DNA of 36,013 nt from a virus. Made by a program: the position numbers and the translations under genes. The notes below the pieces were generated by a model that was not told the origin of the DNA, did not search any database, and saw only the letters and a program-made list of their open reading frames with translations. Shown here one piece after another: positions 1 through 29,138 of this stretch; positions within the stretch are counted from its first letter, which is position 1; every line of letters begins with the position of its first letter. The DNA lies in UHGV virus genome UHGV-0124616. One strand, given 5' to 3'.

Positions 1-108
1 TGCGCAAGAGGAACAGTGCTCAAGTACAACCGAGACAGCAAAGGCGAGCGTCACGTAATAGTTAACGGCGTCCTGATGGTCAAACAAGGCAAGAGGGGAA
101 GACGATGA
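1..108 (+). CDS. ninH: NinH-like protein, 3' partial gene (C-terminal 35 codons present)
   Basis: Frame 1 reads ...CARGTVLKYNRDSKGERHVIVNGVLMVKQGKRGRR*, resembling the C-terminus of lambda NinH as I recall it. Stop TGA (106-108) overlaps the Q ATG (ATGA coupling). Confidence 0.45.
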   Translation, partial: CARGTVLKYNRDSKGERHVIVNGVLMVKQGKRGRR

Positions 109-593
109 GCATAAGAGAACTAAACCTCACCAAAGAGCAGCACGAGTGGCTGAATGGCTGGCTTGAACTGTGGGGCGCATGGGTTTATTCAGGTCGTCTG
201 GAAAAGCGCATGAGCAGCGTAATAGCGAAGTTCATGGAGAGCGTAGAGCCGGGAAGAGTTATGACAAGGGCAATGTGTAATGATGATGATGGAATGTTGA
301 TTTCTCGGGTCGTCGATTCCGTCATGTACATTGACAAGAAAGCCTTTGGAATCCTCCTCAGCTACTACGCTCATGGCTCTTCCAAGCACGCCATTGCATC
401 TTACTATCATCGCGTCGCAAGACCTCGCAAGATGTTATGCCGTGGCGGCGGGCGCATTCAAAAACCATCGCTCGCAACCTGTCGACGGGAAGTTGACGAA
501 ATCCTTAATGCCTCGTTGTTTATGATTTACCCGGTTCTGGATAGTGCGTTTAAAAATCGGAAACGTGTAGAGAAAATTAAACATGTAGCATAG
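105..593 (+). CDS. Late-gene antitermination protein Q (933W/H-19B-type Q family, not lambda-Q type)
   Basis: 162-aa ORF immediately upstream of the lysis cassette, after a nin-region gene. WGAW and CNDDDGM motifs resemble the 933W-type Q as recalled. RBS GAGGGGAAG upstream. Confidence 0.7.
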   Translation: MSIRELNLTKEQHEWLNGWLELWGAWVYSGRLEKRMSSVIAKFMESVEPGRVMTRAMCNDDDGMLISRVVDSVMYIDKKAFGILLSYYAHGSSKHAIASYYHRVARPRKMLCRGGGRIQKPSLATCRREVDEILNASLFMIYPVLDSAFKNRKRVEKIKHVA

Positions 594-599
594 AACGTG

Positions 600-684
600 T
601 TGACATCATTGAGCAAATGAGCAACACTATTGGCATAAGCTGCCGTTAGTGACTCTTAAGTTGCAACGGTGGCTTTTTTTATTT
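600..684 (+). promoter_or_regulatory. Candidate late promoter / Q-utilisation region (pR'-like) with a T-run
   Basis: Consensus -35 hexamer TTGACA at 600-605 directly after the Q stop. Partially palindromic segment (GTTGCAAC) followed by GGTGGCTTTTTTT at 662-680. No convincing -10 found, so the exact promoter is not resolved. Confidence 0.3.
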
Positions 685-759
685 GGGTCAGTCGTATAAA
701 GGTCATTACGGAAGGCTGTTAACCTTCTTATCGTGGTTCGAGTCCACGCTGTCCCGCCA
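685..759 (+). tRNA. tRNA-Asn (anticodon GUU), possibly degenerate
   Basis: Hand-folded cloverleaf: perfect 5-bp anticodon stem GAAGG/CCTTC with loop CTGTTAA; T-arm CGTGG-TTCGAGT-CCACG; 3' GCCA. The acceptor stem GGGTCAG/CTGTCCC has one central mismatch and the D-stem is only 3 bp. Confidence 0.55.
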
Positions 760-764
760 AATAT

Positions 765-840
765 GCTGGTTTAGCTCCAATGGTAGAGCAGTCGCCTTGT
801 AAGCGAATGGGTAGCGGTTCAAGTCCGTTAACCAGCACCA
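765..840 (+). tRNA. tRNA-Thr (anticodon UGU)
   Basis: Hand-folded 76-nt cloverleaf: perfect 7-bp acceptor stem GCTGGTT/AACCAGC; D-arm GCTC-CAATGGTA-GAGC; anticodon loop CTTGTAA; T-arm AGCGG-TTCAAGT-CCGTT; discriminator A plus CCA. Confidence 0.7.
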
Positions 841-1082
841 TAACTGAGCCGTAGCCACTGGCTATCCTGAACTCATCAGTGATAGTTACGCTGCGGCCTT
901 CTACACATGATCTTCGTGAAAGCGGGTGGCAAGAGGCTGCGCTAACAACCTCCTGCCGTTTTGCCCGTGCATATCGGTCACGAACAAATCTGATTACTAA
1001 ACACAGTAGCCTGGATTTGTTCTATCAGTAATCGACCTTATTCCTAATTAAATAGAGCAAATCCCCTTATTGGGGGTAAGAC

Positions 1083-1406
1083 ATGAAGATGCCAGAAAAA
1101 CATGACCTGTTAGCCGCCATTCTCGCGGCAAAGGAACAAGGCATCGGGGCAATCCTTGCGTTTGCAATGGCGTACCTTCGCGGCAGATATAATGGCGGTG
1201 CGTTTACAAAAACAGTAATCGACGCAACGATGTGCGCCATTATCGCCTGGTTCATTCGTGACCTTCTCGACTTCGCCGGACTAAGTAGCAATCTCGCTTA
1301 TATAACAAGCGTGTTCATCGGCTACATCGGTACTGACTCGATTGGTTCGCTTATCAAACGCTTCGCTGCTAAAAAAGCCGGAGTAGAAGATGGTGGAAAT
1401 CAATAA
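1083..1406 (+). CDS. S: Holin, lambda S type (class I)
   Basis: 107-aa ORF with the Met-Lys-Met dual-start motif (MKMPEKHD...) and near-identity to lambda S as recalled. Upstream leader 841-1082 also matches the lambda S upstream region as recalled. Confidence 0.95.
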
Positions 1407-2642: not shown

Positions 2643-3167
2643 ATGAATAATCATTCAGTTATTCCAGCCTTCGACTTCCGAGAAATGGTGCAAGCCAAAA
2701 ACGGAGAGGTCGTTACCACATCCAGAAAAATTGCCAAGTACTTCGGCAAGCGACACGGTGATGTTCTCAGGAAAATCGAGCAGGTTAAGGCTGATTGCTC
2801 GCGTGAGTTTAGCCAACGCAATTTTGCGTCGGCTGATTATATCGATGAGCAGGGCAAGGTTCGCCCGATGTACAGCCTGACGAAAGATGGCTGGATCATG
2901 GTTGTGATGGGGTTCACCGGGAAAGCTGCTGCGGCAATCAAGGAGAGCTATATCGCAGCATTCAACTGGATGGCAGAGCAACTGAGCCGCCGCATGGCAA
3001 TTGGCGAAGAAATGCAGCACCGCTACGCCATCAAAGAAACACGCTCAAAGCTGAAAGGTACGATCGGCAGTCGGTTAATGAACGAACGGAAGAAAGAGAA
3101 GCGTGTCCTGGCTGTCGAGCATGAATACATCTTGCAGGTGACGCAGCCCGAATTGCTGATTAATTGA
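2643..3167 (+). CDS. rha: Rha family phage regulatory protein (antirepressor-like)
   Basis: 174 aa from the internal ATG of ORF 2400..3167. Motif SRKIAKYFGKRHGDVLRKIE is typical of the Rha N-terminal domain. The upstream 81 codons of the track ORF are regarded as non-coding leader. Confidence 0.75.
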   Translation: MNNHSVIPAFDFREMVQAKNGEVVTTSRKIAKYFGKRHGDVLRKIEQVKADCSREFSQRNFASADYIDEQGKVRPMYSLTKDGWIMVVMGFTGKAAAAIKESYIAAFNWMAEQLSRRMAIGEEMQHRYAIKETRSKLKGTIGSRLMNERKKEKRVLAVEHEYILQVTQPELLIN

Positions 3168-23972: not shown

Positions 23973-24160
23973 GACTTCACCTCCTGTTGAGCAGAAACCT
24001 GATTTTTGAGTGATTCAGAAATATTCCTGCAATACCTAGCGGATTCATCGTCGAAAATGCTTTCGAAATACTCAGCAATCCAGCCGAACACAACAACCTG
24101 CTCATTGCTTGGATTTGCACTTTGATTGAAGGCGGTTATTAGTGATGCACTCATACTCAC
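23969..24160 (-). CDS. Hypothetical protein (about 61-63 aa)
   Basis: RBS AGGAGG upstream. Start is ambiguous between GTG at 24160 and ATG at 24154. Confidence 0.4.
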   Translation of the reverse strand: MSMSASLITAFNQSANPSNEQVVVFGWIAEYFESIFDDESARYCRNISESLKNQVSAQQEVKS

Positions 24161-24717
24161 TTAACCTCCTGTTTTGGGGCTGCTGGAAGTGGCATCCAGT
24201 GGGTTATGATTACTTCGCGAGGATTGCAGTCGTCCTCTACTGGCTGCCACTCCGTCCATCCATTGGTTTTATGGACAAAGAAATAAGCAGGAATGTAGTC
24301 TGGTTCATCTCCTTCAAAATATGTTCCCCAGCAAAGATACAAGCAATTGCTATCAGGCATTCGCTCACTACAGCTTATCCAACCATCCGGAGTTCCCGGA
24401 GAGTTGCCATTTACATCGAAGTTTGGCTCTGCGTCCTGAACCAGGAGGATGTAACCATTCTTGGCTGTATCAAGTTCTAACGCCTCGGTGACGGTGCCGA
24501 AATAGCGATTACCTAAATCAGCATCACAAGTGCTTACATCAATGGAAACTTCCATGCCTTCGATTAATTCTGGCAAGTTGTAAGTTTGGCTTACAGGCTC
24601 TGCTTCCAGCGATGCCAGTGCAATTCGTGCCAGTTCCATTTGTTCGCCACGGGTAAGCCCGTTTTCAAGCGGGGATTTAATGAACAATTCGATACGTTCT
24701 TTAGTGATAGTGCTCAT
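24157..24717 (-). CDS. DUF551-domain phage protein
   Basis: Internal ATG at 24717 with RBS AAGGAGAG, 1 nt after the upstream stop. C-terminus ...NGWTEWQPVEDDCNPREVIITHWMPLPAAP resembles DUF551 ends as recalled. Confidence 0.55.
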   Translation of the reverse strand: MSTITKERIELFIKSPLENGLTRGEQMELARIALASLEAEPVSQTYNLPELIEGMEVSIDVSTCDADLGNRYFGTVTEALELDTAKNGYILLVQDAEPNFDVNGNSPGTPDGWISCSERMPDSNCLYLCWGTYFEGDEPDYIPAYFFVHKTNGWTEWQPVEDDCNPREVIITHWMPLPAAPKQEVK

Positions 24718-24718
24718 A

Positions 24719-25417
24719 TCACTCTCCTTTGATGCGAATGCCAGCGACGCATGGCACATTAACTTCCACGATGCGCACAGTTGGTTTGTACATCTCAATC
24801 GCTGTCAGCCAGTCAGCGCCAGTCATGCGCTTTTCTGCATCGCCATTAGTCCACTTAACCGGTACACCAATAGCCTTCATCGCGATTTCTATTTCCCCGG
24901 CGATGGCGCTTTTTCCGCAACCAGTAAAACCAGATACAACGACCAGAACTTCACCTTTGGCTGGTTTTATTTCCCGCGCTTCCAGTTCTGCTATGCGCTT
25001 ACTTCCATCCGAGATAACACCTTCGTAATACTCACGCTGCTCGTTGAGTTTTGATTTTGCTTCCTCAAGCTCAACTCTCAGCTTCCCTACCGTTAACGCA
25101 ATATCCTCGTTCTCCTGGTCGCGGGATTTGATGTATTGCTGGTTCCTTTCCCGTTCATCCAGCAGCGCCAGCACGGTAGCTGGACTGGCTGCGGCGATGA
25201 ATTCAGCATTGGCCTGCTGTTCCATTTGGAAATCTTCATCGAAACCGCTTTCAGGATGCGCTCCTTCAATTCTGCAAATGGGAATATATCCAGCAGCCTC
25301 GCGATGAATTAGCGCATCATCACAATCAAATCGGCTCTCTCCATATTCGAGCGACCATACACCACACGTTGCTTTTTCTGCCTTGGCACGCAGTGCCTCA
25401 TAGTCAATCTTGCTCAC
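24719..25417 (-). CDS. Ea22-like family early protein
   Basis: N-terminus [26 protein letters not shown]... is typical of lambdoid Ea22-like proteins as recalled, with a central coiled coil. GTG start with RBS AAGGAGG. Confidence 0.6.
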   Translation of the reverse strand: MSKIDYEALRAKAEKATCGVWSLEYGESRFDCDDALIHREAAGYIPICRIEGAHPESGFDEDFQMEQQANAEFIAAASPATVLALLDERERNQQYIKSRDQENEDIALTVGKLRVELEEAKSKLNEQREYYEGVISDGSKRIAELEAREIKPAKGEVLVVVSGFTGCGKSAIAGEIEIAMKAIGVPVKWTNGDAEKRMTGADWLTAIEMYKPTVRIVEVNVPCVAGIRIKGE

Positions 25418-26016
25418 TGGTTGCCTCCTTTGCGAATCTGTTCAGCGATATCTTCGAGAACACCATCAGAGAATGAGCGGTCAAAATCGCCTTCCGGCGC
25501 ATTAGCCATAAACTCAGTAGAGGTAAGAATCATCCGGGCAATATCCGCGGCGTTCTTCGCAGTATCATCAATAAAACCAGCTTCCCAGGCAGCCAGCATT
25601 CTGTTCGCCACAAAGTAAGCTCCCTCCTTGCGTGCTTCAGTCTTCACTTCAGCCAGGAAAGCATCGGTGGCTGGTGTTTGCGGCATCCCTCCATCTGTTG
25701 CGCAGATATACGCATCAGATATTTCATCCTGCTCGCCATCAAACACGTAGCAACTCTGTGCGATAAATTTATTCAGCCCAGCATTCTCCGCTGCCAGCGC
25801 TGAAAACTTCTCGTGTGCCAACTTAACAGCCGAATCAGCCTGCTTAATTGACTCAATCGCTCTCTGCTGGTCTTCGGCCAGCGCCGAAATCTTGGCCTCC
25901 GCTTCAGCAAATTTACGCACCAGATATTCAGCGTTTGTTTCGTTAACCTTTAAATCACATGGGATGCATTTACCTTTCAGAAATCCATCCATCTCAATTA
26001 GTGACATTTGTTTCAT
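25414..26016 (-). CDS. Hypothetical early protein (about 200 aa)
   Basis: ATG at 26016 overlaps the upstream stop (ATGA coupling). N-terminal coiled coil. No recognizable family. Confidence 0.45.
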
Positions 26017-26177
26017 TTCTTCCCACTCCGCCACATCGCATTCAGATATTTGTTGTCATTAACAGAACCGAAACTCTCTCGCTTAAGTAATTCCTCTCTC
26101 GATGGCATTGGCTTTACGCGCTGGCGAATAATCATTTCTGCCGGAAGAATTCCGGGATTGTATGCAAGTCCTCTCAT
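26013..26177 (-). CDS. Hypothetical small protein (about 54 aa)
   Basis: Internal ATG at 26177 with RBS GAGGA 7 nt upstream. The start is uncertain. Confidence 0.3.
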
Positions 26178-26187
26178 GGTAAATTCC

Positions 26188-26484
26188 TCAGTCATTACTG
26201 ATAGCGCCATAGCGTGAGCGGTAATTACGCAGGCGCGGGTCGATATATTCAGGGAATTGGGTATATGTGGCTTTGCGGAATGGTCGGATTGATGTCTGGT
26301 AAATTCGCTCTCGTTCTTCTTTCTCTGCAAGCCATATACAATGGCGAAATTCCTTTTCCTCTTTCGTTTCCTGCGGTAGCGACATTATCCGATCGTAGTT
26401 TTTTCTGAATTTATCCAGCACCTCCGATACGGAATTGCCGGAACAGCGGCGCGCGTCATCCGCACCATACAGAGGCGCTGGCAT
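26188..26484 (-). CDS. Hypothetical protein (98 aa)
   Basis: RBS AGGAG 6 nt upstream of the ATG. No recognizable family. Confidence 0.45.
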
Positions 26485-28889: not shown

Positions 28890-29138
28890 CTACTCTATTT
28901 CTTCTTCGAATGATTTTATTAGTCGGTCAATAACATCATCCGTTTCAATATCATTTCCGTCTGATTGCTTTAATACATCTATTGATTCTGCAGCGGTAAA
29001 TTCCATCGCTGTGAGAAACTCGACAATTGCACACTCAACGACATATCGTTCTTCATCTGTACGACATGAGATAAAAGAGCATTTAATTGCTGTTATTACT
29101 TTTTGTTTAAGCTCTGCAGGGTAATCAGTTTTTATCAT
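28890..29138 (-). CDS. Hypothetical acidic protein (82 aa)
   Basis: RBS GGAG 5 nt upstream. Sits directly downstream of the tL1-like terminator. Confidence 0.45.
   Translation of the reverse strand: MIKTDYPAELKQKVITAIKCSFISCRTDEERYVVECAIVEFLTAMEFTAAESIDVLKQSDGNDIETDDVIDRLIKSFEEEIE

Follow-up and report, generated by a model that had tools for sequence, protein, structure and literature searches.

We analysed the 36,013-nucleotide virus genome UHGV-0124616 (hereafter the window, to which all coordinates refer), concentrating on positions 594–1082, which lie between the antiterminator gene Q and the holin gene S and carry two tandem transfer RNA (tRNA) genes, one for tRNA-Asn(GUU) and one for tRNA-Thr(UGU). 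The best explanation overall, which we regard as probable, is that these are late-leader tRNAs controlled by Q21, the Q protein of phage 21; tRNA-Thr would resist cleavage by defence nucleases, tRNA-Asn likely so, and both would bring an extra decoding benefit. The segment is the late-operon leader of a P22-like (Lederbergvirus-type) Escherichia coli phage or prophage and is a three-part mosaic, whose parts correspond, by sequence comparison, to phage 21 control (594–684), a tRNA cassette (685–840) and the lambda S leader (841–1082). The tRNA pair is not new: its published record goes back to the sequences of phages 21 and Sf6, and it was described in print in the SfI paper (2013) and the phage L paper (2020, PMC8022706). 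As a discovery it carries little weight, the pair being routinely annotated and work by other groups having characterised what tRNA-Thr does. What is modestly new is limited to its partner: tRNA-Asn looks, from its sequence, like a second resistant tRNA. The locus provides context for an active field, phage tRNAs as countermeasures to tRNA-cutting immune nucleases, and raises a question of timing, in that these tRNAs stand behind a late terminator while the defences are triggered early.

Two tRNA genes between Q and S

ARAGORN identified exactly two tRNA genes in the 36-kb window, both on the plus strand:

685–759, plus strand: tRNA-Asn, anticodon GUU at 718–720, discriminator G, encoded CCA (ARAGORN and Rfam)
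760–764, plus strand: inter-tRNA spacer AATAT, 5 nucleotides (nt)
765–840, plus strand: tRNA-Thr, anticodon UGU at 798–800, G1-C72, C2-G71, discriminator A, encoded CCA (ARAGORN and Rfam)

The Rfam model RF00005, run in Infernal, gave 55.3 bits for tRNA-Asn (E = 1.6e-10) and 61.5 bits for tRNA-Thr (E = 3.3e-12), both above its gathering score of 29 bits. A first-pass annotation, folded by hand, had placed the same two genes with the same anticodons, and both programs agree with it to the base; the flanking Q stop (TAG, 591–593) and S start (ATG-AAG-ATG at 1083) also lie where it put them. The annotation had further noted an acceptor-stem mismatch and a short D-stem in tRNA-Asn. We find a single acceptor mismatch, U4.U68 (gene coordinates), and a D-stem of 3 base pairs (bp) with U13.U22 unpaired. 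The tRNA-Thr, described there as a clean cloverleaf, is nearly so, with one conserved mismatch, G27.A43, at the top of the anticodon stem.

The identity elements for the asparagine synthetase are G34, U35, U36 and G73, and those for the threonine synthetase are G1-C72, C2-G71, G35 and U36. All of them are present in the window tRNAs and are invariant, or nearly so, among natural variants. The anticodon loops are the same as those of the host (CUGUUAA and CUUGUAA). Overall, tRNA-Asn is 62% identical to host asnT, and tRNA-Thr is 70% identical to host thrU/thrT, compared with 87% to the tRNA-Thr of phage N4 and 81% to that of a P1-like phage. On these figures, the window tRNAs are not recent host captures. 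Both are 100% identical to the tRNAs of phages 21, Sf6 and HK446, and the spacer, AACAT in phages 21 and Sf6, is the sole difference from those two phages within 685–840.

Both tRNA genes bear marks of selection

We aligned natural variants of the cassette, comprising 14 distinct tRNA-Asn and 19 distinct tRNA-Thr sequences. Compensatory double changes occur at three stem pairs of tRNA-Asn (6:66, 7:65 and 28:42) and at three of tRNA-Thr (3:70, 5:68 and 6:67). Controls in which the pairing register was slid gave no compensatory pairs for tRNA-Asn and at most one for tRNA-Thr. Likewise, 90.1% (Asn) and 94.5% (Thr) of stem cells are paired, against 22–52% in slid registers. Little or no variation affects the anticodon, U33, T-loop, discriminator and CCA. 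In nucleotide diversity (pi), tRNA-Asn stands at 0.0058 and tRNA-Thr at 0.0121, 3.5–7 times below the 0.043 of the adjoining non-coding leader, with tRNA-Asn the lowest in the region. The variant alignments thus indicate that both tRNAs are under selection.

The first-pass annotation had considered tRNA-Asn possibly degenerate, which these data contradict: its mismatches are kept in 13–14 of the 14 distinct variants, next to the three compensatory pairs and the low diversity. The G27.A43 mismatch of tRNA-Thr is present in 19/19 distinct sequences.

A phage 21-type control region precedes the cassette

The upstream part of the mosaic contains the following elements:

105–593, plus strand: Q antiterminator, phage 21 allele (Q21), 162 amino acids, stop TAG 591–593
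600–628, plus strand: late promoter pR'(21), −35 TTGACA at 600–605 and −10 AACACT at 623–628, by homology to phage 21
608–623, plus strand: Q-binding element, direct repeats ATTGAGCA/AATGAGCA between −35 and −10, identical to the phage 21 annotation
635, plus strand: transcription start (A635), identical to the phage 21 annotation
636–642, plus strand: sigma-dependent pause element TAAGCTG, identical to the phage 21 annotation
637–684, plus strand: intrinsic terminator tR', hairpin 637–675 and U-tract 674–680, then AUUU

The window Q is identical to the crystallised Q21 (PDB 6JNX, 6P18) at 159 of 162 residues, its gene is 98% identical to that of phage 21, and it matches Pfam PF06530 (E = 3.6e-24) and phrog_943. 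The earlier description of this Q as 933W-like holds at the level of the family, PF06530 being common to both proteins (the 'Q21/Q933W family' of Yin et al., bioRxiv 10.1101/651190), and not at the level of the allele, which is Q21 and shares only 30% identity over 79 amino acids with the 933W Q. From the −35 through tR', 594–684 is identical to phage 21 at 90 of 91 positions. Over 594–902, identity to phage 21 (OL657228) is 98.7% and every annotated element maps position for position, at a constant offset (window position = phage 21 locus position minus 1096). The pR' and Q site, which the first-pass annotation had proposed to locate by alignment to the lambda and 933W late regions, lie at 600–628 and 608–623.

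A generic consensus scan of 500–1150 detected neither pR' nor tR', nor any promoter-like site between tR' and the tRNAs. The −10 of pR' (AACACT) is weak, and an internal bulge interrupts the tR' stem, which extends into the T-tract. Because the scanner misses both elements, we assign them by homology to the phage 21 region, which has been studied experimentally. The tR' RNA folds at −20.2 kcal/mol (z = −4.37; 0/200 shuffles fold as well), and tR' is annotated as a terminator in phage 21 (PMID 1704887) and in Sf6. The 5' end of tRNA-Asn adjoins it without a gap.

This arrangement suggests how the tRNAs would be made. The promoter pR' would be constitutive, with RNA polymerase starting at A635 and pausing at the sigma-dependent pause element. 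In the absence of Q, transcription would terminate at tR' and leave a leader RNA of ~45–50 nt. With Q21 bound to the repeats at 608–623 and loaded onto the paused polymerase, tR' would be read through, a mechanism established for phage 21 (bioRxiv 10.1101/651190) and expected here from near-identity. Since the cassette starts at the first base after the T-tract, the tRNAs would be produced by pR' read-through only and would come first among the products of the late transcript. Their release would then fall to host RNase P and 3' trimming, with the CCA already encoded.

Several smaller features of the control region were also apparent. Q and its binding element covary: Q21 occurs with GAGCA-type repeats, and the allele of Sf6 and phage L, which has 84% amino acid identity to the window Q and diverges after residue ~94, comes with TAGCC-type repeats at the equivalent site (~1475–1492 of the Sf6 locus). 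Sf6 and the window have their mosaic joint at the transcription start, window position 636; the phage L paper makes this observation too. The phage 21 antisense promoter paQ and its CII site (TTGC-N6-TTGC, reverse complement of 417–430) are conserved inside Q (398–430, minus strand). The terminated pR' RNA predicted without Q (635–684, ~45–50 nt) is a counterpart of the lambda 6S RNA and of StxS of Shiga toxin (Stx) phages.

The tRNAs lack published cleavage determinants of tRNA-cutting nucleases

P2 Old, the nuclease of the classic P2–lambda interference, is lethal because it cleaves thrU in the anticodon stem, at paired CNG motifs (PMC12445682). The product of thrU, tRNA-Thr(UGU), is the sole ACA decoder with a UGU anticodon, the principal target of Old and a prime target of AriB, the PARIS nuclease; host tRNA-Asn is a secondary AriB target and a substrate of Old. 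Host Lys(UUU), Thr(UGU) and Asn(GUU) are AriB substrates, cut at U36-A-A-U39-C40↓A41; cleavage is abolished by U39A and lowered by A41C (PMC12409363). We compared these published determinants, namely positions 36–41, the CNG motifs at 28–30/40–42 and the length of the anticodon stem, between host and window tRNAs (the arrow marks the 40/41 junction):

host thrU: 36–41 UAAUC↓A; CNG motifs CUG/CAG; anticodon stem 5 bp
host asnT: 36–41 UAAUC↓C; CNG motifs CGG/CCG; anticodon stem 5 bp
window tRNA-Thr: 36–41 UAAGC↓G; no CNG motif; anticodon stem 4 bp (G27.A43)
window tRNA-Asn: 36–41 UAACC↓U; no CNG motif; anticodon stem 5 bp

The resistant pattern of tRNA-Thr is kept in 18/18 natural variants. The tRNA-Asn lacks U39 and the A or C at 41 of the AriB site, and neither CNG motif is present; host asnT possesses every one of these features. 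The anticodon stem of tRNA-Asn is the full 5 bp, so the shortened stem reported for phage threonine tRNAs is a feature of tRNA-Thr and absent from tRNA-Asn. The identity of the anticodon loops with those of the host does not speak against nuclease evasion, since it is in the anticodon stem that the determinants of both Old and AriB are located.

For tRNA-Thr, this comparison can be set beside published experiments. The phage 21 version, 'tRNA-Thr21', protects cells and resists Old, with Site 1 nearly fully resistant, which was ascribed to its shorter anticodon stem and to changes in the CNG motifs (PMC12445682). The HK446 Thr(UGU) restores plaquing on Old+ cells, and host tRNA-Thr(UGU) does not (bioRxiv 10.64898/2026.07.10.737580). 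The window tRNA-Thr is 100% identical to both of these Old-rescue tRNAs. By analogy, the published rescue by an identical tRNA expressed from a plasmid implies that it decodes ACA. We therefore propose that tRNA-Thr(UGU) would serve as a cleavage-resistant stand-in for thrU, and that tRNA-Asn(GUU) most likely does the same for host tRNA-Asn. An added benefit, not exclusive of counter-defence, would be that both tRNAs raise decoding of ACA and AAC/AAU. Replacement of a nuclease-cut host tRNA is the best-supported function of tRNA-Thr, and the first-pass annotation overlooked it.

The phage also encodes Abc2 (anti-RecBCD) and an anti-restriction protein (26188–26484 and 28890–29138, both on the minus strand). 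Functions of the Abc2-like and anti-restriction kinds trigger defence systems that guard RecBCD (Old) and anti-restriction (PARIS). Their presence fits a counter-defence role for the tRNAs, as does the joint recurrence of Asn(GUU) and Thr(UGU) in unrelated coliphages described below. Several neighbouring early-left open reading frames (ORFs; 24157–26034) have no assigned function and could include defence triggers or inhibitors.

Several points weigh against the counter-defence explanation. Its timing is awkward: the tRNAs are late, the triggers of Old and PARIS are early functions, and ACA codons already occur in the Q and N genes. Unless some read-through past tR' keeps up a basal supply, tRNAs made late may not come in time. 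Excision of the tRNAs from late mRNA is called an unknown in the phage L paper (PMC8022706). As the cassette carries no tRNA-Lys(UUU), the prime target of AriB, it cannot neutralise PARIS alone; phage T5 needs its Lys, Thr and Asn tRNAs together against PARIS. A single tRNA suppresses Old toxicity only in part (PMC12445682; bioRxiv 10.64898/2026.07.10.737580). Among natural tRNA-Asn variants, 6/13 regain paired CAG/CUG motifs through the compensatory C28-G42 change, a pattern that would argue against strong Old-driven selection on the CNG feature of this tRNA. Motif presence or absence is also an imperfect predictor of AriB cleavage, because T5 tRNA-Lys was not made cleavable again by giving it back the host cleavage site (PMC12409363). 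The fraction of threonine codons that are ACA (0.296) is alike in early and late genes, and the codon bias is therefore genome-wide and not late-specific. Finally, the HK446 authors suggest that the tRNA may instead reflect a temperate lifestyle (bioRxiv 10.64898/2026.07.10.737580).

Codon usage and other explanations

Codon usage, to which the first-pass annotation had pointed, does fit a decoding role. ACA is the commonest threonine codon of the phage (29.6% of threonine codons); its frequency is ~7.1 per thousand in the host and 17.2 in the late genes of the phage. The SfI paper gives 17.3 for phage and 7.1 for host. Asparagine makes up 52.6 per thousand in late genes and 36.7 in early genes; in the coat gene, 21 of the 24 asparagine codons are AAC. 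Supplementation alone, whereby the tRNAs raise the supply of ACA and AAC/AAU for an AT-richer phage and nuclease resistance is incidental, is the explanation given in the SfI and phage L (PMC8022706) papers, and host thrU is single-copy. We nevertheless consider it unlikely. Over-expressed host tRNA-Thr(UGU) fails to rescue from Old and the phage version does so, and therefore the sequence differences matter; they fall at positions 39 and 41, at 27:43 and in the CNG motifs. E. coli has four tRNA-Asn genes (asnT, asnU, asnV and asnW), which makes a limiting supply for asparagine improbable. For tRNA-Asn, the SfI authors saw no codon bias that would account for it, and many close relatives (lambda, JEP4, P22) do without the cassette.

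Three further explanations fare worse. One or both tRNAs could be non-functional relics, degenerate and carried along with the Q21/terminator module, as the acceptor-stem mismatch and weak D-stem of tRNA-Asn and the decayed copies elsewhere (the second tRNA of ST64T; a 24-nt piece of tRNA-Asn in phage 2851) might suggest. We give this very little credence: the mismatches are themselves conserved in 13–14/14 variants while three other pairs change in a compensatory manner, diversity lies 3.5–7 times below that of the leader with the key tRNA features almost or wholly invariant, the pair is also found away from the Q21 module, behind terminators of lambda type and of other types, and tRNA-Thr is functional in vivo in the published rescue assays. 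Only slightly less improbable is a cis-acting RNA element, in which RNase P or RNase E processing signals define a stable 5' end of the late mRNA, or the cassette acts as a recombination joint. The cassette does start right where the terminator T-tract ends and stop where the conserved leader begins, mosaic joints in JEP4, HK446, 2851 and phage 21 fall on its boundaries, and the leader downstream is highly structured; yet a processing signal needs neither conserved anticodons nor synthetase identity elements, relatives without the tRNAs express the same lambda-type lysis genes, and tRNA-Thr acts in trans from a plasmid.

The remaining explanation, that the tRNAs make up for a host tRNA gene that the integrating prophage has interrupted, was raised in the HK446 preprint (bioRxiv 10.64898/2026.07.10.737580), and many P22-like phages do integrate in tRNA genes such as thrW and argU. 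We rate its probability as close to nil. The thrW anticodon is CGU, not UGU. Genes for Asn(GUU) and Thr(UGU) are not among the reported attachment sites, tRNAs behind a late-operon terminator are ill-placed for steady expression in a lysogen, and the targets reported for relatives are thrW or argU, where integration rebuilds the target gene (PMC8022706).

The tRNA pair as an exchangeable cassette

In a phage collection, 176 records match part of 594–1082 and 60 hold at least 80% of the tRNA pair. The pair is present in 347 of 5,426 complete E. coli genomes and, among the matches listed, is annotated by the NCBI annotation pipeline PGAP. Taxa with the cassette include Escherichia, Shimwellia and Phytobacter (among the matches listed) and, from phage records, Salmonella, Shigella and Klebsiella. 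A 16-mer scan of genome contigs (596 Gb), a probe too short for that volume of sequence and one for which 6 of the 120 matches listed were real, provides a sketch of the taxonomic range only. In IMG/VR, 98 loci carry this tRNA-Asn, in the following cassettes:

Asn-Thr: 79 loci
Asn-Gly(UCC): 6 loci
Asn-Phe-Thr-Arg(UCU): 4 loci
Asn-Phe-Thr: 2 loci
Asn-Thr-Arg: 2 loci
Asn only: 2 loci
Asn-Phe-Thr-Arg-Gly: 1 locus

Phe(GAA) is inserted in 7 of the IMG/VR loci and Arg(UCU) is appended in 7. Gly(UCC) is a reported target of Old, and the phage-borne Gly copy keeps, by eye, the anticodon-stem sequence of host glyT.

The cassette occurs behind 21-type, Sf6-type, lambda-type and other terminators. JEP4 has the same Q21, pR' and tR' followed by lambda-like filler without tRNAs; HK446 has a lambda-type Q, pR' and tR' followed by the identical tRNA pair, with the joint within the terminator T-tract. 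The Stx2c phage 2851 has the Q21 module, then only the first 24 nt of tRNA-Asn (~3076–3099 of the 2851 locus), then Ile, Arg and Arg tRNAs and stx2c; the stump resembles a scar left by recombination within the tRNA gene. Comparison of these loci indicates that the tRNA pair is a discrete, exchangeable cassette.

In ST64T (locus positions 981–1052), the tRNA-Asn is identical; the second tRNA has lost 4 nt, is changed in its anticodon arm and is not called by ARAGORN. The phage L paper reads it as Leu(UAA) (PMC8022706); it is either decaying or remoulded.

The combination Asn(GUU) + Thr(UGU) recurs in unrelated coliphages, namely the P1-like RCS47 (in tandem, at 625–778 of its locus), N4 (437–686 of its locus) and T5. 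We offer, as a tentative proposal from sequence, that tRNA-Asn(GUU) is a second counter-defence tRNA and that Asn and Thr together form a minimal 'anti-Toprim-nuclease kit' exchanged among temperate coliphages. It is conceivable, with similar reservation, that phages 21, Sf6 and HK446 and the P22-like phages exchange this kit as a unit, placing it behind whichever late terminator they have, with P1 and N4 carrying other versions. If true, this would explain the recurrence of exactly these two tRNAs. A recent preprint treats HK446 as a single-tRNA phage (bioRxiv 10.64898/2026.07.10.737580). In the locus that we extracted from HK446 (JQ086372), ARAGORN calls a tRNA-Asn (711–785) and a tRNA-Thr (791–866), and the Asn partner appears to have been missed there.

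As to ancestry, the acceptor stem of tRNA-Thr is identical throughout to that of the N4 tRNA-Thr, and the tRNA-Asn lineage is distinct from the tRNA-Asn genes of N4 and P1. K-12 glyT, a tRNA-Gly(UCC), is closer to the window tRNA-Asn (69%) than host tRNA-Asn is (62%), with an almost identical D-arm, and the host glyT-thrT tandem has the same layout of 75 nt, spacer and 76 nt as the window pair. We considered an origin of tRNA-Asn from a glyT-thrT-like tandem and make no such claim, the similarity to glyT being ~1.5 standard deviations above the mean of 40 tRNAs (57.5 ± 7.8).

Relation to known late regions and phage tRNAs

The closest counterpart of the window is the phage 21 late region (OL657228; Guo, Kainz & Roberts 1991), with the same Q21, pR', Q-binding element, pause, tR', tRNA-Asn and tRNA-Thr. 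The two differ past 902, where phage 21 continues into the leader of its own S21 pinholin and the window has a lambda-type leader and an S105/S107 holin in a P22-like backbone. Sf6, SfI, BTP1 and SPN9CC are annotated with this tRNA-Asn/tRNA-Thr pair and share tR', the lambda-type leader and the holin. SfI also shares the Q21 allele. Sf6 is 94.9% identical to the window over 600–1082, and its 2004 record annotates pR', qut, tR', tRNA-Asn and tRNA-Thr as "similar to phage 21"; it differs in its Q (84% amino acid identity) and in having TAGCC-type rather than GAGCA-type repeats, homology starting only at 636. The HK446 Thr(UGU) and 'tRNA-Thr21' are identical in sequence to the window tRNA-Thr, without CNG motifs and with a shortened anticodon stem. 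The HK446 cassette, however, stands behind a lambda-type Q, pR' and tR', and the rescue studies on HK446 and phage 21 covered tRNA-Thr alone, expressed from plasmids.

The first-pass annotation had drawn its analogy from the tRNA genes of Stx phages. As in the window, the tRNA genes of 933W and other Stx phages belong to a lambdoid late leader and lie downstream of Q, pR' and tR', and Stx2c phages have the Q21 allele, but the analogy is a loose one. The tRNAs of 933W and 2851 are Ile/Arg/Arg (ileZ-argN-argO), lie several hundred bases past tR', have their own promoter and are followed by stx. This promoter is the putative pT of the 933W record, and a start site was found by differential RNA sequencing (dRNA-seq) in an enterohaemorrhagic E. 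coli (EHEC) Stx2a prophage (PMC7547250). With other anticodons, no room for a promoter and no stx, the window does not hold a 933W-type cassette, and its true counterparts are phages 21, Sf6, SfI and HK446.

The tRNA-Lys, tRNA-Thr and tRNA-Asn that T5 uses against PARIS (PMC11464382, PMC12409363) include the same anticodons as the window pair and bear substitutions at or near the 40/41 site. They differ in that their sequences are unrelated and that they belong to a cluster of ~24 tRNAs expressed from early promoters in a virulent phage; the window has no tRNA-Lys.

The lambda-type S leader and holin

Downstream of the cassette, the mosaic continues with the following features:

841–1082, plus strand: lambda-type late leader upstream of S, 95.5% identical to lambda
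1083–1406, plus strand: lambda-type holin/antiholin S, dual start Met1-Lys2-Met3 (ATG-AAG-ATG), PF05106, phrog_126, with the same annotation in Sf6 and lambda

The resemblance of 841 to S to the lambda S leader, noted in the first-pass annotation, is borne out, window 838–1082 corresponding to lambda 44942–45185 at 234/245 positions (95.5%). The stretch 841–902 is also common to phage 21, which then diverges to its pinholin genes. No toxin or cargo gene was found between the tRNAs and S, as the annotation had also stated. The sole ORF of the leader (879–1031, 50 amino acids, GTG start) is intact in 39/40 variants and matches phrog_22751 (unknown function). We considered it as a hidden gene and rejected it: variation by codon position is 14/5/13, with no third-position excess, there is no obvious Shine–Dalgarno sequence, and lambda annotates none here. 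It lacks a coding signature and is treated as non-coding. The leader RNA (841–1095) is strongly structured (−87.9 kcal/mol, z = −5.35), with a long hairpin (848–897) common to lambda, phage 21 and Sf6 and a CCCC/GGGG stem just ahead of the S start.

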